Below the pieces are notes generated by a model. That model was given only the letters and a program-made list of their open reading frames with translations. It had not been told where the DNA came from and searched no databases. Shown piece after piece: positions 4,916 through 38,778 of a DNA stretch of 40,308 nucleotides (its first letter is position 1; each line of letters begins with the position of its first letter). The DNA lies in the IMG/VR virus record IMGVR_UViG_2778261673_000007, one strand, 5' to 3'. A program made the translations under genes and the position numbers. Source of the DNA: a virus (Duplodnaviria; Heunggongvirae; Uroviricota; Caudoviricetes).

Positions 4916-5182
4916 AAAAAGGACGGTACCAGCCGGAAGCAAGGGTACAAACTGGTACCGCCAGGACTACACACAGCATAAAGTTGTGGTGCCGGGTGCC
5001 TCCCGGTGCCTGGCGAAGGTTGCACACCAGGCGGGTGGGTATCCACAGAAGGTCGACTGTCAGCCTCAACCTTAACCCGCGTGCGCTGAGCCGCATTCAC
5101 CACAACGCTAAGGATTCTCTCTGGTTGAAAATACTTAGCTGTTATGTGCCTGCTTTTAGCCACATCAGGCGAGGTGGACCTA

Positions 5183-5231
5183 GTTATTCCCCAACAACAA
5201 GGATTCGGTTAATCTGGTTATCCCCAACAAC
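5183..5231. promoter_or_regulatory. Two direct repeats GTTAT(T/C)CCCCAACAAC 34 bp apart, immediately upstream of the 5247 gene
   Basis: Copies at 5183-5198 and 5217-5231; positioned within about 50 bp of the start codon at 5247; candidate operator or UTR element. Confidence 0.35.
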
Positions 5232-5246
5232 GCAAAAGGAAAAGAA

Positions 5247-5681
5247 ATGTCCGGTAATATCTATACGCTGTACAAATCCCACTGTGAAAATGTTGGAAAG
5301 TATCGGGGCATTGAAATCAGTGGGGTAGTGCCATCAGTCGAAATAAGCAAAGTTGAATCAAGGGCAACATTACTTACTCTTTTGGACCTTGTCTTACATG
5401 AGCACCGGAAGAAATTCGGCACTCCCTATAATCAGTTGAATGGGAAAAAGGCTCTGGTTCACCTTATTCTGATGAAGCATCACTGGATGCCAAAACAGAT
5501 TAATGAGATGAAATTTGATGAACTTCTTCTTTCAATTCAGGATGAACTCACACTTGATAAAATAAGCGTAACCGCCCAGAAATTTTTAGATTATCGAGAC
5601 TGGAGATCACAAATTCATCACTTTGATGATTTTGACGAAAATGAATGGGATCCTAATTTGTCTGCACAATATCTAAAGTAA
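5247..5681 (+). CDS. Hypothetical 144-aa protein, oriented against the leftward early operon (possible lysogeny-expressed moron)
   Basis: ATG ORF with AAAGGAAAAG upstream; AT-rich; convergent with and overlapping the minus-strand small gene at 5653-5681; no family recognised. Confidence 0.5.
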   Translation: MSGNIYTLYKSHCENVGKYRGIEISGVVPSVEISKVESRATLLTLLDLVLHEHRKKFGTPYNQLNGKKALVHLILMKHHWMPKQINEMKFDELLLSIQDELTLDKISVTAQKFLDYRDWRSQIHHFDDFDENEWDPNLSAQYLK

Positions 5682-5859
5682 CATCCTGTGATAAAACCGT
5701 GATTTCCTGATCCAGTTTTTTTAAGGAGTCTATTGTTTCCTGTCGATAAGACAGCACTTCACGAAGCTGGTTTATAGCTGCCAGCTTCTTTGTCATCCAC
5801 TCATAAATTTCCTCATCTGTGTAGCCAGGCGCGACGATTTTGGGTTCTGTTTTGTGCAT
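5653..5859 (-). CDS. Hypothetical small protein (about 68 aa) at the head of the leftward operon
   Basis: Internal ATG (MHKTEPK) preceded by AGGAGATGTGAA; lies just downstream of the putative OL/pL region. Confidence 0.4.
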   Translation of the reverse strand: MHKTEPKIVAPGYTDEEIYEWMTKKLAAINQLREVLSYRQETIDSLKKLDQEITVLSQDVTLDIVQTN

Positions 5860-5918
5860 TTCACATCTCCTCAAGTTATCAGTTACTTGTTGATGGGGAC
5901 CAGATTGTTAAAGAGCTA

Positions 5919-5941
5919 AGCGTCCTGTAGGGCGCTTTTTT
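5919..5941 (+). terminator. Putative rho-independent terminator (short bulged GC stem followed by TTTTTT)
   Basis: AGCG(t)CC ... GGCGCT followed by a T6 run on the plus strand; would terminate transcripts of the 5247 gene. Confidence 0.35.
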
Positions 5942-6020
5942 GTTGCTAACGAATCATCCTGGACTTCATATGCCCCAGGCGGCTACTTCGTGGGCGTCCT
6001 GCCTGTTCGTTGTTTCGCTT

Positions 6021-6047
6021 GGGTACATTATGTATCTCAAAGGTACA
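6021..6047. promoter_or_regulatory. Putative OL operator half-sites (GGTACA motifs) left of the repressor gene
   Basis: GGTACATTATGTATC and AGGTACATTG share the GTACA half-site with the palindromes found between the repressor and cro genes. Confidence 0.35.
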
Positions 6048-6093
6048 TTGTCAAGTATAAAAAAACCTGCCGAAGCAGGTTCATAAACATTGA

Positions 6094-6768
6094 TTAGGCT
6101 TTGATTTTGTATCTTCTTGGTTTTCCTGAGAAAATCACTGTACCAATTATAGAGCAATTACCGTTGATCTTAATGTAAGGCTCAGGCCAGTTTGGGTTTA
6201 ACGCTTTGAGATAACGCTGTGTCCCATCTTCTATCAACCTTTTGAAGGTGGTTTCACCTGTATCGTGCATCAATGCAATAACGTCGTCACCGTGGCAGGC
6301 AGGTACTTCAGGATCGACAAAAATCATGTCTCCCGGGCGGTACTCATCAATCATTGAATCACCTATCACCCGCAAGATATAAGTCATTTCCCCACAGGGT
6401 ACAGGGCAGGGATACGTTTCTGCTGTGCTCAAATCAACCTCAGAATATCCAACTTCTTTCCATGCTCCGGCCTGTACCCATGATATGACAGGGACTAATG
6501 TGATTTGTTTATTAGTGATTGAAACATCAGGTTTTTTTGTGATGTTCGTTGTCTGGTGTTCTTGATCGAGCCATCCGACAGGCAGGTCGAAACATTTTTC
6601 GATGTGTCGTGCCATGCTGTCACCGATATTTTTAGTAGCACCATCTCCCATAAACCTGCTGGTCTGGGTTGGCTCGCGATCAATCATAGTGGCAAAGGAA
6701 GAATTCCCGCCAACACCATCTCTCAGTTTTCTGGCGTTAGACCGCCGGATGTCATGGATTGTTTTCAT
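6094..6768 (-). CDS. cohE: CI-like prophage repressor: N-terminal HTH, C-terminal S24 LexA-type self-cleaving peptidase domain
   Basis: 224 aa; C-terminal region contains the GDSM serine motif and a downstream Lys (TFKRL) typical of S24 peptidases; divergent from a Cro-like gene across an operator-rich intergenic region; size matches the e14 repressor. Confidence 0.8.
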   Translation of the reverse strand: MKTIHDIRRSNARKLRDGVGGNSSFATMIDREPTQTSRFMGDGATKNIGDSMARHIEKCFDLPVGWLDQEHQTTNITKKPDVSITNKQITLVPVISWVQAGAWKEVGYSEVDLSTAETYPCPVPCGEMTYILRVIGDSMIDEYRPGDMIFVDPEVPACHGDDVIALMHDTGETTFKRLIEDGTQRYLKALNPNWPEPYIKINGNCSIIGTVIFSGKPRRYKIKA

Positions 6769-6783
6769 AACGAAATTAAAACC

Positions 6784-6853
6784 CTTGTACCGCTAAGGTA
6801 CAAGTATCTTGAAGGTTCATTTCAATCATGTAATATGTACACCGGAGGTACAT
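6784..6853. promoter_or_regulatory. OR/pR region: palindromic operators CTTGTACC-N5-GGTACAAG and ATGTAC-N7-GTACAT with a TTGAAG-16-TAATAT promoter reading into cro
   Basis: Palindromes read directly (6784-6804 and 6835-6853); -35 TTGAAG at 6809-6814 and -10 TAATAT at 6831-6836; the second operator overlaps the -10. Confidence 0.5.
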
Positions 6854-6858
6854 ATTGT

Positions 6859-7059
6859 ATGAAAGCGTATTGGGACTCTTTAACCAAAGAACAGCAGGGC
6901 GAGTTGGCCGGAAAAGTTGGCTCAACACCTGGCTACTTACGGCTGGTTTTCAATGGCTATAAAAAAGCCAGTTTTGTGCTGGCTAAAAAACTTGAGCAAT
7001 GCACGTCAGGTGCAATTACGAAATCTGACTTAAGACCGGATATCTATCCGAAAGATTAG
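6859..7059 (+). CDS. croE: Cro-like small HTH regulator (66 aa)
   Basis: ATG at 6859 preceded by GGAGG; divergent from the repressor; small helix-turn-helix-like protein. Confidence 0.65.
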   Translation: MKAYWDSLTKEQQGELAGKVGSTPGYLRLVFNGYKKASFVLAKKLEQCTSGAITKSDLRPDIYPKD

Positions 7060-31433: not shown

Positions 31434-31858
31434 TGGAACTGTGGCTGACGGTGAACGGTAAACGCACCTGCGCCAGCGCACCGCTGGATCCGCTGACCCG
31501 CGCCGTGGTGATTTCCCTGTTTACCTGGCGGCGGGCGGAGCCTGATGACAACGCCGACGTCCCGATGGGATGGTGGGGGGATACCTGGCCTGCGGTACAG
31601 AATGACCGTTACGGCTCCCGACTGTGGCTGCTTCAGCGCAGCAAACTGACCAATCAGCTGGTGCAGACGGTAAGGGGGTATATCCGCGAATGCCTGCAAT
31701 GGATGATTGATGACGGCGTGGTGTCCCGTATTGATCTGGATATCCGCCGCACCGGGATTAATGAACTGGGTAATAGTATCACTCTCTGGCGTCGTGACGG
31801 ACCGGTAATGATTTCTTTTGATGATCTGTGGAGTGCGATAACGCATGGCGGACAGTGA
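31430..31858 (+). CDS. Baseplate protein (Mu gp46 / GPW-like)
   Basis: 142 aa, precedes baseplate J. Confidence 0.5.
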   Translation: MMELWLTVNGKRTCASAPLDPLTRAVVISLFTWRRAEPDDNADVPMGWWGDTWPAVQNDRYGSRLWLLQRSKLTNQLVQTVRGYIRECLQWMIDDGVVSRIDLDIRRTGINELGNSITLWRRDGPVMISFDDLWSAITHGGQ

Positions 31859-32903
31859 ATTTCAGCGCCCGACGCTGGCAGAAAATATCAGTATGCTCCG
31901 TAACGATTTATTCGCCAGGCTGGACGTCAGCGACACGCTCCGGCGCATGGATGAAGACGTGCGGGCAAAGGTGTATGCGGCGGCGCTGCATACGGTTTAC
32001 GGGTACATCGATTATCTGGCAATGAACATTCTGCCTGACCTGTGCGATGAGTCCTGGCTGGCGCGACATGCTGCGATGAAACGGTGTCCGCGCAAGGGGG
32101 CCACGGCTGCCAGCGGGTATATGCGCTGGGAAGGTGTCAGCGATGGCCTGAAGGTGACCGCCGGGAGTGTTATTCAGCGCGATGACCTGGTTCAGTACAC
32201 GGCAACTGCCGATGTAACCAGCTCCGGTGGTGTCCTGCGCGTGCCGATCGCCTGCTCAAGTGCAGGTGCGGTCGGTAACGCTGACGACGGTACGGCATTA
32301 ATCCTGGTCACGCCGGTGAATGGTCTGCCGTCTTCCGGTGTGGCTGACACCCTTACAGGCGGATTTGATACTGAAGAGCTGGAAACGTGGCGCGCCCGCG
32401 TCATTGAGCGGTATTACTGGACGCCTCAGGGCGGGGCTGACGGGGACTATGTCGTCTGGGCTAAAGAAGTGCCCGGCATTACCCGCGCATGGACATACCG
32501 TCACTGGATGGGAACGGGAACTGTCGGTGTGATGATTGCCAGCAGTGACCTGATTAATCCCATTCCGGAAGAATCAACGGAAACGGCAGCAAGACAACAT
32601 ATCGTGCCACTGGCCCCGGTGGCAGGCTCTGATTTGTATGTATTCAGGCCGGTGGCGCATAAAGTGGATTTTCATATCCGCGTGACGCCGGACACACCAG
32701 AAATACGAGCCGCCATCACCGCGGAGTTGCGTTCGTTTCTTCTGCGTGATGGTTATCCGCAGGGAGAACTGAAGGTATCGCGTATCAGTGAGGCGATTTC
32801 CGGTGCGAACGGGGAATACAGCCATCAGTTGCTTGCACCGGCAGACAATATCTCCATTGCGAAAAATGAACTGGCGGTTCTGGGGACGATTTCATGGACG
32901 TGA
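31845..32903 (+). CDS. Baseplate J-like protein
   Basis: 352 aa; canonical position before gp48-like and tail fibre genes. Confidence 0.7.
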
Positions 32904-33478
32904 CAAACGATGATTACATCCGTCTGTTGTCGGCACTGTTGCCACCCGGTCCGGCGTGGTCAGCCAGAGATCCGGCGATTGCCGGTGCGGCACCGTCATT
33001 AACCCGCGTTCATCAGCGTGCGGATGCCCTGATGCGGGAGCTGGATCCGCGCACCACCACTGAACTGATAAACCGCTGGGAGCGTCTGTGCGGTCTGCCG
33101 GATGAATGTATTCCGGCGGGAACGCAGACCCTTCGCCAGCGTCAGCAACGGCTGGATGCGAAGGTTAACCTGGCGGGCGGCATCAACGAGAATTTTTATC
33201 TTGCACAGCTTGCTGCCCTGGGCAGGCCAGATGCCACCATCACGCGATACGACAAAAGCACCTTCACCTGCTCATCGGCCTGTACTGACGCGGTGAATGC
33301 GCCGGAATGGCGGTATTACTGGCAGATCAACATGCCAGCCGCCACCAACTCCACCTGGATGACATGTGGCGATCCCTGTGATTCCGCACTGCGTATCTGG
33401 GGTGACACCGTTGTCGAGTGTGTGCTTAACAAACTCTGCCCGTCGCATACCTACGTAATTTTTAAATATCCGGAGTAA
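32894..33478 (+). CDS. Mu gp48-like tail protein (YmfQ-like, 194 aa)
   Basis: Size and position; same length as the e14 ymfQ product by recall. Confidence 0.55.
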
Positions 33479-33481
33479 TCC

Positions 33482-34120
33482 ATGCATCGTATAGACACGA
33501 AAACCGCGCAGAAGGATAAGTTCGGCGCGGGTAAGAACGGTTTTACCCGTGGTAACCCCCAGACCGGCACGCCTGCCACCGATCTGGATGATGACTACTT
33601 TGACATGTTGCAGGAGGAACTTTGCAGCGTGGTGGAGGCATCCGGTGCCAGCCTGGAGAAGGGGCGGCACGACCAGTTACTTACCGCACTTCGCGCGCTG
33701 CTGTTAAGCCGCAAGAATCCGTTTGGCGATATCAAATCGGATGGCACTGTGCAAACGGCTCTCGAAAACCTTGGTTTGGGAGAATTATCTCTGGCTGGCA
33801 CTGCATCGGGTGTCATTGGTCTGAATGGGTATGTAACGATTCCGTTAATTATTTCAGGTTCCCGGAGAACACTGATTATTCAGTGGGGGCAGGCGAGATT
33901 TGGTGGGTCTGGTGGTGAAGATGCCGGATATCTTAATGATTTTCCTTTTGCCTTTCCGTCAGCATGTTATGGGGTGATAGTTAGTCATGTGGGGTATACA
34001 CCTTCAGGCGCAGGAATCCTGTCGGCTTCTGCCATTACATCAAATCAGTTCCGCGGTTTTTCAAGCATAGCGACTGCTGCAAACGCTGTATTTGGTCGTT
34101 ATATCGCTATAGGGGTGTAA
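33482..34120 (+). CDS. Tail fibre protein: constant N-terminal part fused to the currently expressed variable C-terminal part
   Basis: N-terminal tail-fibre-like region; a gix/hix-like recombination site lies inside the gene at codon ~93; followed by a tail fibre assembly gene. Confidence 0.65.
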
Positions 34121-34121
34121 T

Positions 34122-34559
34122 ATGTTTTATAGTCCATCTTTAAACATTTTTGTGAATCCTGCACTTAAGGATGATTACATTAATGCAAATTCATGGCCAG
34201 ATGATGCTCTGGCTGTCAGTGATGATGTTTATAATAAATTTGCAATAAATACGCCCCCAGATGGCAAAATTCGTGTTGCAGGAGAGAATGGATTACCCAC
34301 ATGGGCACTAATACCTCCACCATCACATGAAGAACTTATTCAACAGGCAGAATCAGAAAGGCAATTATTGCTTAATCAGGCCAACGAATACATGAACAGT
34401 AAACAATGGCCCGGTAAAGCCGCTATTGGTCGTCTGAAAGACGAGGAACTGGCGCAATATAATTTGTGGCTGGATTACCTGGACGCACTGGAGCTGGTTG
34501 ATACCTCCAGTGTGCCAGATATTGAATGGCCTACGCCTCCGGCAGTTCAGGCCAGATGA
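34122..34559 (+). CDS. Tail fibre assembly protein (expressed orientation)
   Basis: 145 aa with C-terminal ...LWLDYLDALELVDTS...WP motif typical of Tfa chaperones. Confidence 0.7.
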   Translation: MFYSPSLNIFVNPALKDDYINANSWPDDALAVSDDVYNKFAINTPPDGKIRVAGENGLPTWALIPPPSHEELIQQAESERQLLLNQANEYMNSKQWPGKAAIGRLKDEELAQYNLWLDYLDALELVDTSSVPDIEWPTPPAVQAR

Positions 34560-35133
34560 CATCCGGCGCTGTGCTGGTATCTGTTGCCGTCACCGCGTCA
34601 ATGTAATCCAGCACAGTGTTAAGTCGGGTGGTCTCTGCCTGCATCAGCTTCCGCCCGGCCTGCAATTTAAGTTGAATCAGACTAATGGAAGCCATTGCAG
34701 TATTAATCAGTGACTGACGCTGTACTTCTGCCGCGTCTACTGCGGCGCTATGCTGTGCCTCAGTATCGGTCACCCATTTCTTACCATCCCATTTATCGAA
34801 TGGCGTTAACGGGGCGATAGTGGTTGTATTTTCAGGATAATCACCCGGAGCTGTGATTTCTTTGGCGTCTCCCGTTTCGGTGTTATAGACGATTTCACCG
34901 CGATGGTCTGGCACATATTCCCATGAGTTTAAATCCATCGAACGGCAGATAGCATAACCCGCCTTATGTATACCAGGTTCATCCAGACAGGAATATGCAG
35001 GGATACCGACACCAATGGCAAGATATTCATTTGAAGTAGAAATATATTCCCGAGTTTTACCATCATAGTTATAGACGGTAATATTCCCCGCCTTCGTGGC
35101 AATAAGCTCGCTATTTAATACGGCGTTATCCAT
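34531..35133 (-). CDS. Alternative tail fibre assembly protein (inverted orientation, TfaE-like)
   Basis: 200 aa; C-terminal ...LDYIDAVTATDTS...WPELP motif; convergent with and overlapping the other tfa. Confidence 0.7.
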   Translation of the reverse strand: MDNAVLNSELIATKAGNITVYNYDGKTREYISTSNEYLAIGVGIPAYSCLDEPGIHKAGYAICRSMDLNSWEYVPDHRGEIVYNTETGDAKEITAPGDYPENTTTIAPLTPFDKWDGKKWVTDTEAQHSAAVDAAEVQRQSLINTAMASISLIQLKLQAGRKLMQAETTRLNTVLDYIDAVTATDTSTAPDVIWPELPEA

Positions 35134-35654
35134 TATGCAGCCCTCACGATATAGTTAAATGCAATATTTCGTGGACGGGTTTCACTCCCGCCAGTATTAC
35201 CGATACTCCCTCGTGAATGAAGTGTCGGTGATGGGATCAGACTCCCTCCTGTATTTGTGGCATCAAGTCCCCGTCCTTGTGTGTATGTCTTTTTGAAAAT
35301 CGTAGCCAGTTCCCATTCATCTTTTGTGTCGTAACCATCATTGGCAACAACAATATGGCGGTGTTTTTCCAGCATCCCTGTCTGAATGCTCAATAAAACA
35401 CGTCCTGCATCAATACCGCGCCCGTCATCCCAGCCACGAATAAACTCACCACGTAAATCAGGCAATTTATTTGTCGGATAAGCCTTTGCCAGTTCCGGGT
35501 ATTCTTCAGCAGAAAAAGCCGCACCGTTGCATTTCAGCCAGCCTGTTGGCGGTGTGGCTGAAGGCCATGGAACAGGCACACCAACAGGTAATGCAGAGCC
35601 TTCTCCCAAACCAACGTTTATGAAAATGCAGAAATAACGAGCAAATGGCATCAT
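35133..35654 (-). CDS. Alternative tail fibre variable C-terminal segment (silent until inversion)
   Basis: Contains the conserved fibre-tip segment PVGVPVPWP...GWL.CNGAAFS...YPELAKAYP...LPDLRGEFIRGWDDGRG; its 5' end lies at the right recombination site. Confidence 0.6.
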   Translation of the reverse strand: MMPFARYFCIFINVGLGEGSALPVGVPVPWPSATPPTGWLKCNGAAFSAEEYPELAKAYPTNKLPDLRGEFIRGWDDGRGIDAGRVLLSIQTGMLEKHRHIVVANDGYDTKDEWELATIFKKTYTQGRGLDATNTGGSLIPSPTLHSRGSIGNTGGSETRPRNIAFNYIVRAA

Positions 35655-35680
35655 TCCTGCTTTTGTCAGAGGGATCCACT

Positions 35681-35872
35681 ATGCTTATTGGCTATGTACG
35701 CGTATCAATAAATGACCAGAACACAGATCTACAACGTAATGCGTTGAACTGTGCAGGATGCGAGCTGATTTTTGAAGACAAGATAAGCGGTACAAAGTCC
35801 GAGAGCCTAGGGCTGACAGTGCTGTTCTTGATGCAAATTAAAGGATTTAATAGTGAGTTGCGGCCTTACTAA
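35681..35872 (+). pseudogene. pinE: Truncated, degenerate Pin/Gin/Hin-family serine invertase (only about 64 codons)
   Basis: First ~35 residues MLIGYVRVSINDQNTDLQRNALNCAGCELIFEDKISG match the invertase N-terminus including the catalytic Ser region; sequence then diverges and stops, far short of the ~190 aa of intact invertases. Confidence 0.65.
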
Positions 35873-35883
35873 TGTAAGGCCGC
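35860..35883. other. Perfect 10-bp inverted repeat hairpin (GCGGCCTTAC-taat-GTAAGGCCGC) at the junction between the invertase remnant and the AT-rich cargo gene
   Basis: Read directly; followed on the plus strand by a T-rich stretch. Confidence 0.45.
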
Positions 35884-35905
35884 TATAATCATTTTATTAA
35901 TTGCA

Positions 35906-37795
35906 TTAATCGTATTTTGGCCATACTTTCAATGCAATTTCCCCCAACTTTTTACCTCGCTCCAGTATTTCACTCTCATCCCATTTATCCTTAAGTATAA
36001 GTGGTATGTTCAGTCGTAGATTGGTGTGGACGATGAGAGCATCACGTTTTTTCAGAAATACAGCATTCTGAACGGAACGGTTTACGCTAAGGTTAAGCAA
36101 AGTTAGATTTCCCAACGTAGCTATCGCTTGTTGCCGTTTCCTTACCAGTAGCTGTTCAGGGGTAAGATCGGTTCCAGACAGAACAATTTGGTTCATTACC
36201 GTAGCATCTGAATTTGTCACCATATGACCATTTTCGAGAGGCCAACAGGAATACCAACTTTGAGGCATAAGATGATCGATATCGAGATTAGAAAGATTTG
36301 GAACATCAGGCTTTTCTGTCTTCACTTGGCGACAAAGTTCTCTTTCAAGTTCCGTTAACATTGAGCGCATTTTCGGTGCGTCGAGCCTGCCAGGATAAAG
36401 TGGAGCATTGATGCAAGCGTTGAGAAATTCTGAGTCCCCAGGCCAACGTGAGGCTTCGCCATTTAAGCTATTGAGGATATTACGTAACTCAATACTGGAA
36501 ATTTCCGTTTTAGACAAGTGTCGCAATACATTCATAAATACATTGTTGTAATTCTTTGGCGTCAGGCCACATACGGATCTTCGTACTACGTAGGAGACAA
36601 GATCATTATACATGGCTGCTTTCTCATCATCGGCGATGTTAGCTATCGAAATGAACAAAGCAAGCGGATAGAGTGTCGTCACATCATAGGCTGCGATGCG
36701 ATGTCCAAAGTGTGAGATGGGGGTTGTGCCAAAACCACCAACCAATTCTTTATATTGTGATGCATATTGTTTGAGGCGCTTTACTTGCAGATCTGCTCGT
36801 TGTGAAGGCAAGTCCTTACTTACATAATCACGATACTCATTGTAAAGGCGAGACAGATCAATTTCACGCTGCCTTTCTGATTGCAATGTCGCATGTACAA
36901 GCCACTCCATGCGTGGTTTATTAATACGTCCACGGCGTTGCTTTTCCGACCAGTATTTATCTTCAAAGATCTTCCACTCATTTTCATATAATTCAATAGT
37001 ATTAATATTTTCATGCTCAGCGCACATAAAGATATAGTTGCGAATAAGATCCGTTGCATGAAGTTCCGCTCCTCGCCCATTTAATGTTTCAAAAATTATT
37101 TGGGCATCATCTTCAGCTTCGAGAAATATGCTTACCAGTTTCAGATCCGTCAAGACAGCCTCAATTAGTGCTACAGCATTTTCTTGTGGTGAGCGGTTTT
37201 CTATTTTAATCCATTTTATAAAGGCTTCAGTAAAAAACCATAATGCCTCTAGTGACGGCGGGTGGTTGAAATGTTTACGTAACGTACCATGTTGCGTGAA
37301 GCTATCAGAAAATACATTACGGAGATCGTCAATATTATCAACATTAAGACTTTGAATAAAATGAGTTTGATCTCGAAAAGTTGGCCACAGTTTGAAGCAT
37401 TCTACCTTTTTATTTCTCATCGTTGCTTCGTTTGTATTTTTCAAGCAAGTCAATACTAACCCTTCCAGTTCAGAAAGGCCTGTAGCACGCAATGATAATC
37501 GAATGGATGCCAGAATATATTGAAGAGTGGTTAAACGTTGCTGGCCGTCAATAATATGTATGGTATCTACACCTAACAAGCTGTTTTTGAGTTGAGGTTC
37601 CAGCACCACCGCGCCGAGGAAATGAGGGGTTGGTTTTGTTCCCGAAAGTCGGCTCTGTGCTTTTTCGAAGATATCCTCCAGCAAAGCTGACCATTGGTTT
37701 CGTTGCGTCCATACGTAGGCACGTTGATAGAATGGAACACGATATTGTCGTTGATTTTGGAAAATTTGCTGGATGGTTAGCGTTTCGGATTTCAT
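35906..37795 (-). CDS. GmrSD-family type IV (modification-dependent) restriction endonuclease: N-terminal DUF262, C-terminal DUF1524/HNH-like
   Basis: N-terminal VPFYQRAYVW and IIDGQQRLTTL motifs (DUF262 NTPase-like); C-terminal DIDHLMPQS and GNLTLLNLSVNRSVQNAVFLKKR motifs (DUF1524 nuclease); 629 aa; strongly AT-rich relative to flanking phage DNA. Confidence 0.8.
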   Translation of the reverse strand: MKSETLTIQQIFQNQRQYRVPFYQRAYVWTQRNQWSALLEDIFEKAQSRLSGTKPTPHFLGAVVLEPQLKNSLLGVDTIHIIDGQQRLTTLQYILASIRLSLRATGLSELEGLVLTCLKNTNEATMRNKKVECFKLWPTFRDQTHFIQSLNVDNIDDLRNVFSDSFTQHGTLRKHFNHPPSLEALWFFTEAFIKWIKIENRSPQENAVALIEAVLTDLKLVSIFLEAEDDAQIIFETLNGRGAELHATDLIRNYIFMCAEHENINTIELYENEWKIFEDKYWSEKQRRGRINKPRMEWLVHATLQSERQREIDLSRLYNEYRDYVSKDLPSQRADLQVKRLKQYASQYKELVGGFGTTPISHFGHRIAAYDVTTLYPLALFISIANIADDEKAAMYNDLVSYVVRRSVCGLTPKNYNNVFMNVLRHLSKTEISSIELRNILNSLNGEASRWPGDSEFLNACINAPLYPGRLDAPKMRSMLTELERELCRQVKTEKPDVPNLSNLDIDHLMPQSWYSCWPLENGHMVTNSDATVMNQIVLSGTDLTPEQLLVRKRQQAIATLGNLTLLNLSVNRSVQNAVFLKKRDALIVHTNLRLNIPLILKDKWDESEILERGKKLGEIALKVWPKYD

Positions 37796-38051
37796 TGTTT
37801 ACCTATAAATAACATTAAGTGACATTCTACAAGAGTAAGAAATTCATCTGAGTCAGAACAATCATTTTTATGTAGTTATGATACAGTGTATTTGTTACTG
37901 GTGAAGTAAAAATAAGAAACCCCGCTTTTGAATGCTGACGCGCTACGGTTTCATTGGATATTTTTTGTCTCTCCTCCATCCCGTTGGTGTTCTGTTTAGA
38001 CTGATAACTTGCTGTTTTAATTGATATTAGTTTCTTGCGCCGCCCAATCAT

Positions 38052-38077
38052 GGTTGGTGGGTTGGTGGGTTGGTGGG
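38052..38077. repeat. Tandem repeat (GGTTGGTG)x3
   Basis: Read directly, about 260 bp upstream of the GmrSD gene start. Confidence 0.5.
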
Positions 38078-38622
38078 AGTTAAATCCACATTGGTATGAA
38101 TAACATAGAATATGAATTAGTGTTTCAGAATTGCTTCAGCCATCACTTTTTAATACGTTCAATTTGAATGTTTATTTCCGAAACAATTTTTTCAGGTTTC
38201 AGTCCCTCGTTAGATTGCACAAAATCTCTAATTTGCATCATTCGATGTGCACAAATTTGTAATTCGCTATAAACACTTAGCTCGTCAGATTCATTTTGAG
38301 ATTGTTCACCTGTTTAAAATTCTACATAAGTATGTGGCGGATTGTGATAAACACGAGAAATCGGGGTTGGCCACCATTCCTCACCGGTCACTACGTCCGC
38401 ATCGAATAGTACAGTTTTGTCAATTTCCATTAATTTCTGGATAAGAACAGAAGTTTTCAAGCGAACCTCCATTTTGCCATAAAGTGGTTATCAAAACGCT
38501 ACGTAAACTATACAAAATCAGCGAGTTATGGTGAAGGTAAAAAAACAAGTTTAGATGTTCGTTAAGTATAAAATTGTTTTAATTCAATTGGATATAATAA
38601 TTTTCTAAATCTAATGCTGCGC

Positions 38623-38778
38623 CATATGGGTTGGACTGAAGCGGCTGACCTGATTGTTAAAGGTATGGAAGGCGCAATCAATGCCAAGACCGTAACTTAT
38701 GACTTCGAACGTCTGATGGAAGGCGCTAAGCTGCTGAAATGTTCAGAGTTTGGTGAAGCGATCATCGAAAACATGTAA
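38623..38778 (+). pseudogene. icd: Displaced 3' fragment of isocitrate dehydrogenase gene (last ~52 codons), marking the prophage-host junction
   Basis: Translation [51 protein letters not shown] matches the Icd C-terminus as recalled; homology begins abruptly after AT-rich sequence at about 38620; no upstream icd coding sequence present. Confidence 0.8.

Follow-up and report, generated by a model that had tools for sequence, protein, structure and literature searches.

The 40,308-nucleotide DNA of IMG/VR virus record IMGVR_UViG_2778261673_000007 (this whole stretch is called the window here) carries a tail-fibre inversion switch that is very likely the P-segment switch of an e14-family prophage in which the 3' end of the invertase gene pin and the restriction gene mcrA have been swapped for a GmrSD module, leaving an orphan substrate that is flipped in trans. 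It is probably a switch of an ordinary, known type run by a borrowed enzyme, and not a frozen one. In the proposed mechanism, a single replacement event exchanged the right-end cargo (the pin 3' end and mcrA) for the GmrSD module and left a 63-codon stub of pin; the cis-acting parts survived, namely both 26-bp crossover sites with matching dinucleotides, the promoterless and the expressed tip-chaperone cassettes in frame, and nt 1-136 of pin, the part in which Gin/Hin/Pin systems have their Fis-dependent enhancer; and the segment would flip when a serine invertase of the Gin/Pin family or of the PinQ/PinR type is supplied in trans by another prophage, a plasmid or an infecting phage, being frozen only in cells without any such invertase.

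An invertible fibre segment beside a stub of pin

The elements of the switch are as follows.

33482-34120, plus strand: expressed tail fibre gene (212 amino acids; Pfam Gp53-like_C at residues 131-211), the positional equivalent of e14 stfP
33759-33784: left 26-bp crossover site, CTCTCGAAAACC-TT-GGTTTGGGAGAA, with its central dinucleotide at 33771-33772, within the fibre coding sequence
33773-35612: P-type invertible segment, which measures 1,840 bp from one central dinucleotide to the other
34122-34559, plus strand: tail fibre assembly chaperone cognate to the expressed tip (Pfam Caudo_TAP, E=9.5e-35)
34531-35133, minus strand: tfaE-like tail fibre assembly chaperone cognate to the silent tip (Pfam Caudo_TAP, E=3e-31)
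35133-35612, minus strand: silent alternative fibre tip with a tail-collar domain (Pfam Collar, E=1.2e-15), without a constant N-terminal part of its own
35601-35626: right 26-bp crossover site, TTCTCCCAAACC-AA-CGTTTATGAAAA, with its central dinucleotide at 35613-35614
35681-35872, plus strand: pin stub of 63 codons, of which codons 1 to about 45-49 derive from pin and the remainder is read from the inserted module
35702-35765: putative recombinational enhancer within the stub, with two 15-bp G...C Fis-type cores
35702-35716: Fis-type core 1, GTATCAATAAATGAC
35751-35765: Fis-type core 2, GTGCAGGATGCGAGC

The segment is bounded by inverted-repeat arms of 19 nt (33766-33784 and 35601-35619) that are complementary at 18 of 19 positions, as a preliminary description of this DNA had noticed when it called the sites gix/hix-like. 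No comparable inverted repeat arose in 200 shuffles of 32000-37500, and the 14-mer TTCTCCCAAACCAA has exactly two copies in the 40-kb window, one per strand. Extended to full length, the sites are canonical gix/hix-type 26-mers, imperfectly palindromic and in inverted orientation, with the same inner half-sites and the same central dinucleotide (AA/TT, as against GA/TC in gix); base for base they are the left and right sites of the Escherichia coli K-12 e14 P segment, and they contain the e14 repeats reported previously (PMC12529663). The preliminary description was right that a segment is bounded by these sites and slightly high in giving its length as 1.87 kb; it measures 1,840 bp, or 1,854 bp with the 19-nt arms.

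The expressed fibre consists of a constant N-terminal part (33482-33772, 97 codons) and a variable tip (33773-34120). The alternative fibre C-termini and their cognate chaperones sit on opposite strands and are in frame in either orientation: when 33773-35612 is flipped in silico, the 97 constant codons join the collar tip in frame to give a fibre of 256 amino acids in place of the present 212. Both the silent tip and its chaperone are encoded by intact reading frames, and the chaperone gene is 88% identical in nucleotide sequence to the K-12 tfaE region. Pfam domains and the in-frame flip thus agree with the two alternative tips and cognate chaperones that had been proposed.

The invertase gene beside the segment, earlier described as reduced to about 64 codons, is indeed an open reading frame of 63 codons that matches Pin residues 1-49. 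The stub keeps the catalytic Ser9 in its context YVRVS; the Pfam Resolvase profile is covered at positions 2-54 of 145 only, PinE aligns with the stub through its residues 1-49 alone (tblastn), and nucleotide homology to K-12 pinE ends at nt 136 (window 35816). The stub lacks the remainder of the catalytic domain as well as the E helix and the C-terminal helix-turn-helix DNA-binding domain, and no complete serine invertase gene adjoins the segment. The same stub is labelled 'recombinase family protein, incomplete, missing C-terminus' by PGAP in other genomes and is annotated as a pseudogene in UTI89, IHE3034, AHB4, ES7 and ES8. From this domain content, the 63-codon product is predicted to be unable to recombine DNA. 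In the UTI89 and ES8 stubs there is a 1-nt deletion (GAGA-CCTAGGG) relative to window 35811, at position ~7095 of the UTI89 locus (L004), so that the frame and length of the stub peptide vary by lineage, which argues against a function of the peptide itself.

Aligned with intact pinE and with Mu gin, the stub is near-invariant through ~130 nt from the start of its coding sequence, both Fis-type cores included. The core centres are 49 bp apart, the distance of core 1 from the right crossover site, measured to the site centre, is ~96 bp, and TAATG is present. In the Gin, Hin and Cin systems, the Fis-bound enhancer is located in the 5' part of the invertase gene. The Hin enhancer lies ~100 bp from hixL and has AT-rich ATTTA and TAATG tracts between its Fis sites (PMC3798978), a geometry that the core spacing and the distance to the crossover site fit. 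By analogy, 35702-35765 would work as a Fis-dependent enhancer. Since no usable account of where the Pin enhancer lies came out of a literature search, the argument rests on the gin alignment and the Hin geometry. At window 35709, the centre of the first putative core, stub codon 10 reads ATA in place of ACA (a C-to-T change, Thr10 to Ile in a dead reading frame); the change is absent from the UTI89 and ES8 stubs, from intact pinE and from Mu gin, and it keeps the centre of the core A/T-rich and is probably harmless to Fis binding.

The arrangement is that of the Mu G segment with Gin and of the Hin, Cin and Min systems, which likewise have two 26-bp inverted sites and alternative fibre C-termini with cognate chaperones, and whose invertase gene carries the enhancer within its 5' end; over that stretch, the window stub aligns with gin almost unchanged, its own enhancer being putative. 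These systems encode their own enzyme beside the segment, whereas the window keeps the cis elements only.

Inversion after truncation in related genomes

Among 5,426 complete E. coli genomes, 295 (~5%) have the junction of the stub with gmrSD, counted where at least 80% of the query was covered, and both orientations of the adjoining segment are found among the carriers. In the best 30 of the 295, the match runs on from the stub into the collar-type tip in 21 cases; in the other nine it ends precisely at the crossover site, and a gp53-like tip adjoins the stub. When synthetic flipped and native queries are compared, one closely related group, which we take to be extraintestinal pathogenic E. 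coli (ExPEC) of the sequence type 95 (ST95) type, splits into two sets with identical scores: UTI89, S88, NU14 and APEC O18 match the flipped query, and IHE3034, APEC O1 and PMV-1 the native one. Over 11,885 bp, UTI89 and IHE3034 have no mismatches once 4972-6900 is inverted, and the breakpoints fall inside the 26-bp sites. ES8 and ES7, which represent a second lineage with a different cassette and a prophage at ssrA, differ over 11,804 bp by one single-nucleotide polymorphism (SNP) and an inversion with its breakpoints in the crossover sites. Because the truncation junction is common to the members of each pair, the inversions happened after the loss of pin. The stub-bearing allele has been inverted after truncation in at least two lineages, and the description of host range as probably locked is not supported as a default. 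The stub/GmrSD junction itself has a single origin. AHB4 was considered as a 100%-identical flipped twin and rejected as proof of inversion in situ, since its identity is confined to the stub and GmrSD, and its cassette and backbone are 88-97% identical.

The particular combination in the window (its P-segment allele with the stub and GmrSD), native or flipped, is in no complete genome of the collection; the best full-length matches have 75-85% coverage and 92-96% identity, and the flip test was therefore run on other allele pairs. Compared over window 33400-35816, the P segment shares 98.8% identity with its counterpart in BS15R-A, a strain whose pinE is intact, as against 88-95% for the cassettes of other GmrSD-linked loci; the tip cassettes shuffle independently of the pin stub. 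Such mosaicism, together with the presence of the same junction in prophages at icd and at ssrA, is what would be expected if the two orientations stemmed from import of whole tail-fibre modules from other prophages by homologous recombination and not from inversion in situ. Import would leave differences in the flanks, however, and the ~11.9 kb in and around the segment are identical between UTI89 and IHE3034 (0 SNPs) and between ES8 and ES7 (1 SNP), with breakpoints inside the 26-bp sites; for these pairs, import is largely refuted. As inversion has also been seen within one UTI89 culture, we consider import very improbable as the source of the orientations.

RecA-dependent or illegitimate recombination at short inverted repeats, with no site-specific recombinase, would place the breakpoints at the sole inverted repeat, where they are found, so that sequence alone cannot tell the two mechanisms apart. 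Perfect identity extends over just 14-15 bp, however, which is below the length for efficient RecA recombination; the sites are those of an invertase system; and a subpopulation detectable by polymerase chain reaction (PCR) in ordinary cultures implies a frequency typical of invertases. Inversion without a dedicated recombinase is barely credible on this evidence.

Helper invertases and the case for a frozen switch

Inversions in cultures of UTI89 have been identified from read pairs and validated by three-primer PCR at 0.9, 2.1 and 2.9 Mb; they are present in control cells, and two of them lie within prophages, one of those beside a phage invertase (Russell et al., PMC6458436). The published primers for the 2.9-Mb event match three places in the UTI89 locus, namely ymfQ, tfaE (which lies inside the segment) and, with one indel, gmrSD, and hence the published 2.9-Mb inversion is that of the stub-flanked P segment. 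The legend of Fig. S1 of that paper assigns panels D-F to 0.9, 2.1 and 2.9 Mb, and its text describes D and E as prophage inversions and F as an asn tRNA inversion; since primer mapping makes the 2.9-Mb event that of the prophage P segment, the 2.1-Mb event is presumably the asn one. The orphan switch thus probably explains a published and hitherto unexplained prophage inversion.

The 0.9-Mb primers of the same study flank an intact invertase of 199 amino acids (UTI89_RS04425, chromosome 918974-919573), 78% identical to PinE and ~2 Mb away from the segment. It is encoded in a P2-like prophage (UTI89 chromosome 918974-923595; locus L012, 43974-48595), and the gix sites of this prophage, TTATTTAAAACCTCGGTTTACAGGAA and TTCTCGTAAACCGAGGTATTCGATAA, differ very little from those of Mu. 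This Gin-like enzyme is the likely helper for the orphan switch, and a helper invertase, we infer, is what flips the segment. The preliminary description had allowed that an invertase from another prophage might act in trans, and this escape clause, not the default, fits the behaviour of the same allele in other strains and the inversion in cultures of UTI89, which has an intact Gin-like invertase elsewhere on its chromosome. Action of this kind is established experimentally: PinQ and PinR flip the e14 P segment in trans, and the Fels-2 Fin flips the Hin H segment (PMC12529663), so that in each case the segment of one prophage is flipped by the serine invertase of another. The trans action proposed for the window allele, with the UTI89 Gin-like enzyme as example, resembles these cases; in K-12, where the resident PinE is intact, it is redundant, whereas for the window switch it would be obligatory.

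Helpers are common. A chimeric query was matched in 5,053 of the 5,426 genomes, nearly all of the matches being due to its invertase parts. Chimeric anchor queries agree with the presence of a helper in UTI89: a single extra pinE-3'-like place is counted in UTI89 and likewise in IHE3034, and neither appears when pinQ alone is the bait; in genomes other than UTI89, helper presence was scored by counting such extra places per record.

Several observations count against a switch that is generally served in trans. No other invertase was found in the 40-kb window by tblastn with PinE. In 28 of 60 records with an identical UTI89-type GmrSD anchor, counted over the chromosome only, there is no second pinE-3'-like or pinQ-like place; these records are mostly of the ST95 type and include both orientations. 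PMV-1, ATCC 11775 and EC9682 are examples of carriers scored as having no helper. Many carriers may truly be frozen, and those without a second invertase place may be either frozen descendants of flipped ancestors or served by plasmids or incoming phages. Survival of the enhancer is also uninformative, as ~84% of random truncation end points would keep it; its retention is expected by chance and is no evidence of selection.

The first two of these observations, together with the non-functional stub and the report that K-12 pinE and pinE pinQ mutants are locked (PMC12529663), favour a switch that is frozen in the source strain itself for want of a compatible invertase, so that only the gp53-like-tipped fibre is made and the collar-type tip is dead cargo. 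This is possible but doubtful, because helpers are so widespread, because the silent tip and chaperone have stayed intact open reading frames, and because the same allele has flipped in two or more lineages and flips in UTI89 cultures. Flipping in trans by a borrowed invertase therefore remains the preferred account. It is rather unlikely that the pin stub has been kept for its enhancer and that the P segment is a 'client' switch set wholly by the invertases of other elements. If that were true, phage host range, or surface exclusion of the StfE2-like kind, would be coupled to the co-resident prophages, and orientation differences among carriers with no detectable helper would point to a recombinase that has escaped recognition or to transiently infecting phages.

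An intact invertible segment beside a missing invertase should not be taken as a frozen phase: crossover sites and a putative enhancer in a 5' gene stub may suffice, given any compatible invertase in the cell. This exact orphan switch is present in about 5% of complete E. coli genomes, including those of much-studied ExPEC strains such as UTI89, IHE3034, S88 and APEC O1. For trans control between prophages, its carriers with and without helpers form a natural test set. Earlier publications already cover the components, the cross-reactivity of the invertases, the location of GmrSD and the (unexplained) UTI89 inversion; what is new is that these are linked and that flipping after truncation is proved at the population level.

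The GmrSD module and the surrounding prophage

The elements that surround the switch are as follows.

31845-32903: Baseplate J
32894-33478: Mu gp48/YmfQ
35817-38603: cargo module of 2,787 bp, delimited by blastn against K-12 e14, homology to which stops at 35816 and returns at 38604 (the e14 right end)
35906-37795, minus strand: GmrSD-family type IV (modification-dependent) restriction enzyme, 629 amino acids, convergent with the pin stub
38614-38778, plus strand: duplicate of the icd C-terminus (icdC-like, from the open reading frame translation), the right attachment end

By its domains, the product of 35906-37795 is classed as a GmrSD type IV restriction enzyme: the single chain of 629 amino acids combines Pfam GmrSD_N (DUF262, E=2.1e-33) with GmrSD_C (DUF1524, E=3.8e-19), and the PADLOC mREase_IV model matches it from 1 to 629 of 629 with 1516 bits. 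Homologues have been characterized as a prophage-borne GmrSD group located just downstream of tail-fibre genes (PMC4437046); Eco94GmrSD and UTI89_C2960 of that study, like the window enzyme, have 629 amino acids, DUF262 and DUF1524, and directly follow the tail-fibre genes of a prophage. The UTI89 homologue at the corresponding position (locus L004, 7191-9080) appears to be UTI89_C2960, the 'UT enzyme' of that paper, an assignment by position, since a site next to prophage tail-fibre genes is what the paper gives for it. Its main text makes no mention of an invertase, whereas in the window GmrSD displaces the 3' end of pin.

The module substitutes for 1,584 bp of e14, comprising the 3' end of pin (419 nt) and mcrA. 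The blastn boundaries, at nt 136 of pin and at the e14 right end, show that the stub arose by a single cargo replacement and not by gradual erosion, and that one type IV enzyme (McrA, encoded by mcrA) was exchanged for another (GmrSD) at the same prophage end. The invertase had previously been called decayed; more precisely, its 3' three-quarters were removed in the one replacement that brought in GmrSD. A defence-gene swap at a prophage end can cut a neighbouring gene in this way and yet leave the switch flipping in related strains.

The gene order and the flanks are those of an e14-family prophage integrated at icd. In blastn against K-12 e14, ymfQ with the constant part of the fibre gene is 98.5% identical, and the stretch that starts at 38604 and takes in icdC and iraM is 99.7% identical; iraM follows the icd C-terminal fragment. 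The K-12 order is ymfQ, stfP, tfaP, tfaE, stfE, pinE, mcrA, icdC, iraM, and the window has the same series of ymfQ, fibre, tfa, tfa (minus strand), fibre tip (minus strand), pin, type IV restriction gene, icd' and iraM. The two share both 26-bp crossover sites and a pin 5' end that is 92% identical; the window differs in that pin is cut after ~nt 136-147, that GmrSD stands in place of mcrA and that its tip cassettes, one gp53-like and one with a collar tip, are alleles other than those of e14. It differs also in extent: e14 is a 15-kb remnant, whereas an integrase-sized open reading frame near the left end of the window and head and tail reading frames equal in length to annotated genes of a related prophage make the window prophage look complete, from integrase through tail.

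Between the convergent pin stub and gmrSD, at window 35861-35884, lies a perfect GC-rich hairpin, GCGGCCTTAC TAAT GTAAGGCCGC, which may be a gmrSD terminator imported with the module. A simple terminator scan did not flag it, and a scan of 35550-38700 for sigma-70 promoters and terminators gave results no better than shuffles.

The right-end slot holds different cargo in different prophages: GmrSD in the window, mcrA in K-12 e14, a LEM-3-like GIY-YIG gene after the intact pinE of BS15R-A, and, in UTI89 and ES8, GmrSD and a DinI-like pseudogene together with a GIY-YIG gene (UTI89) or an AbiTii gene (ES8). The interval between pin and the attachment end looks like a hotspot for the exchange of defence genes. 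In a phage collection, the stub-GmrSD junction was found in no record, the only matches being partial ones of the tail-fibre and invertase parts to P2-like and SfII/SfIV-like phages. Prophages with this junction sit at either of two attachment sites, icd (the window and AHB4) or ssrA (ES7 and ES8; loci L010 and L011, 10982-11344), which indicates that the tail-end module has moved between prophages by recombination.

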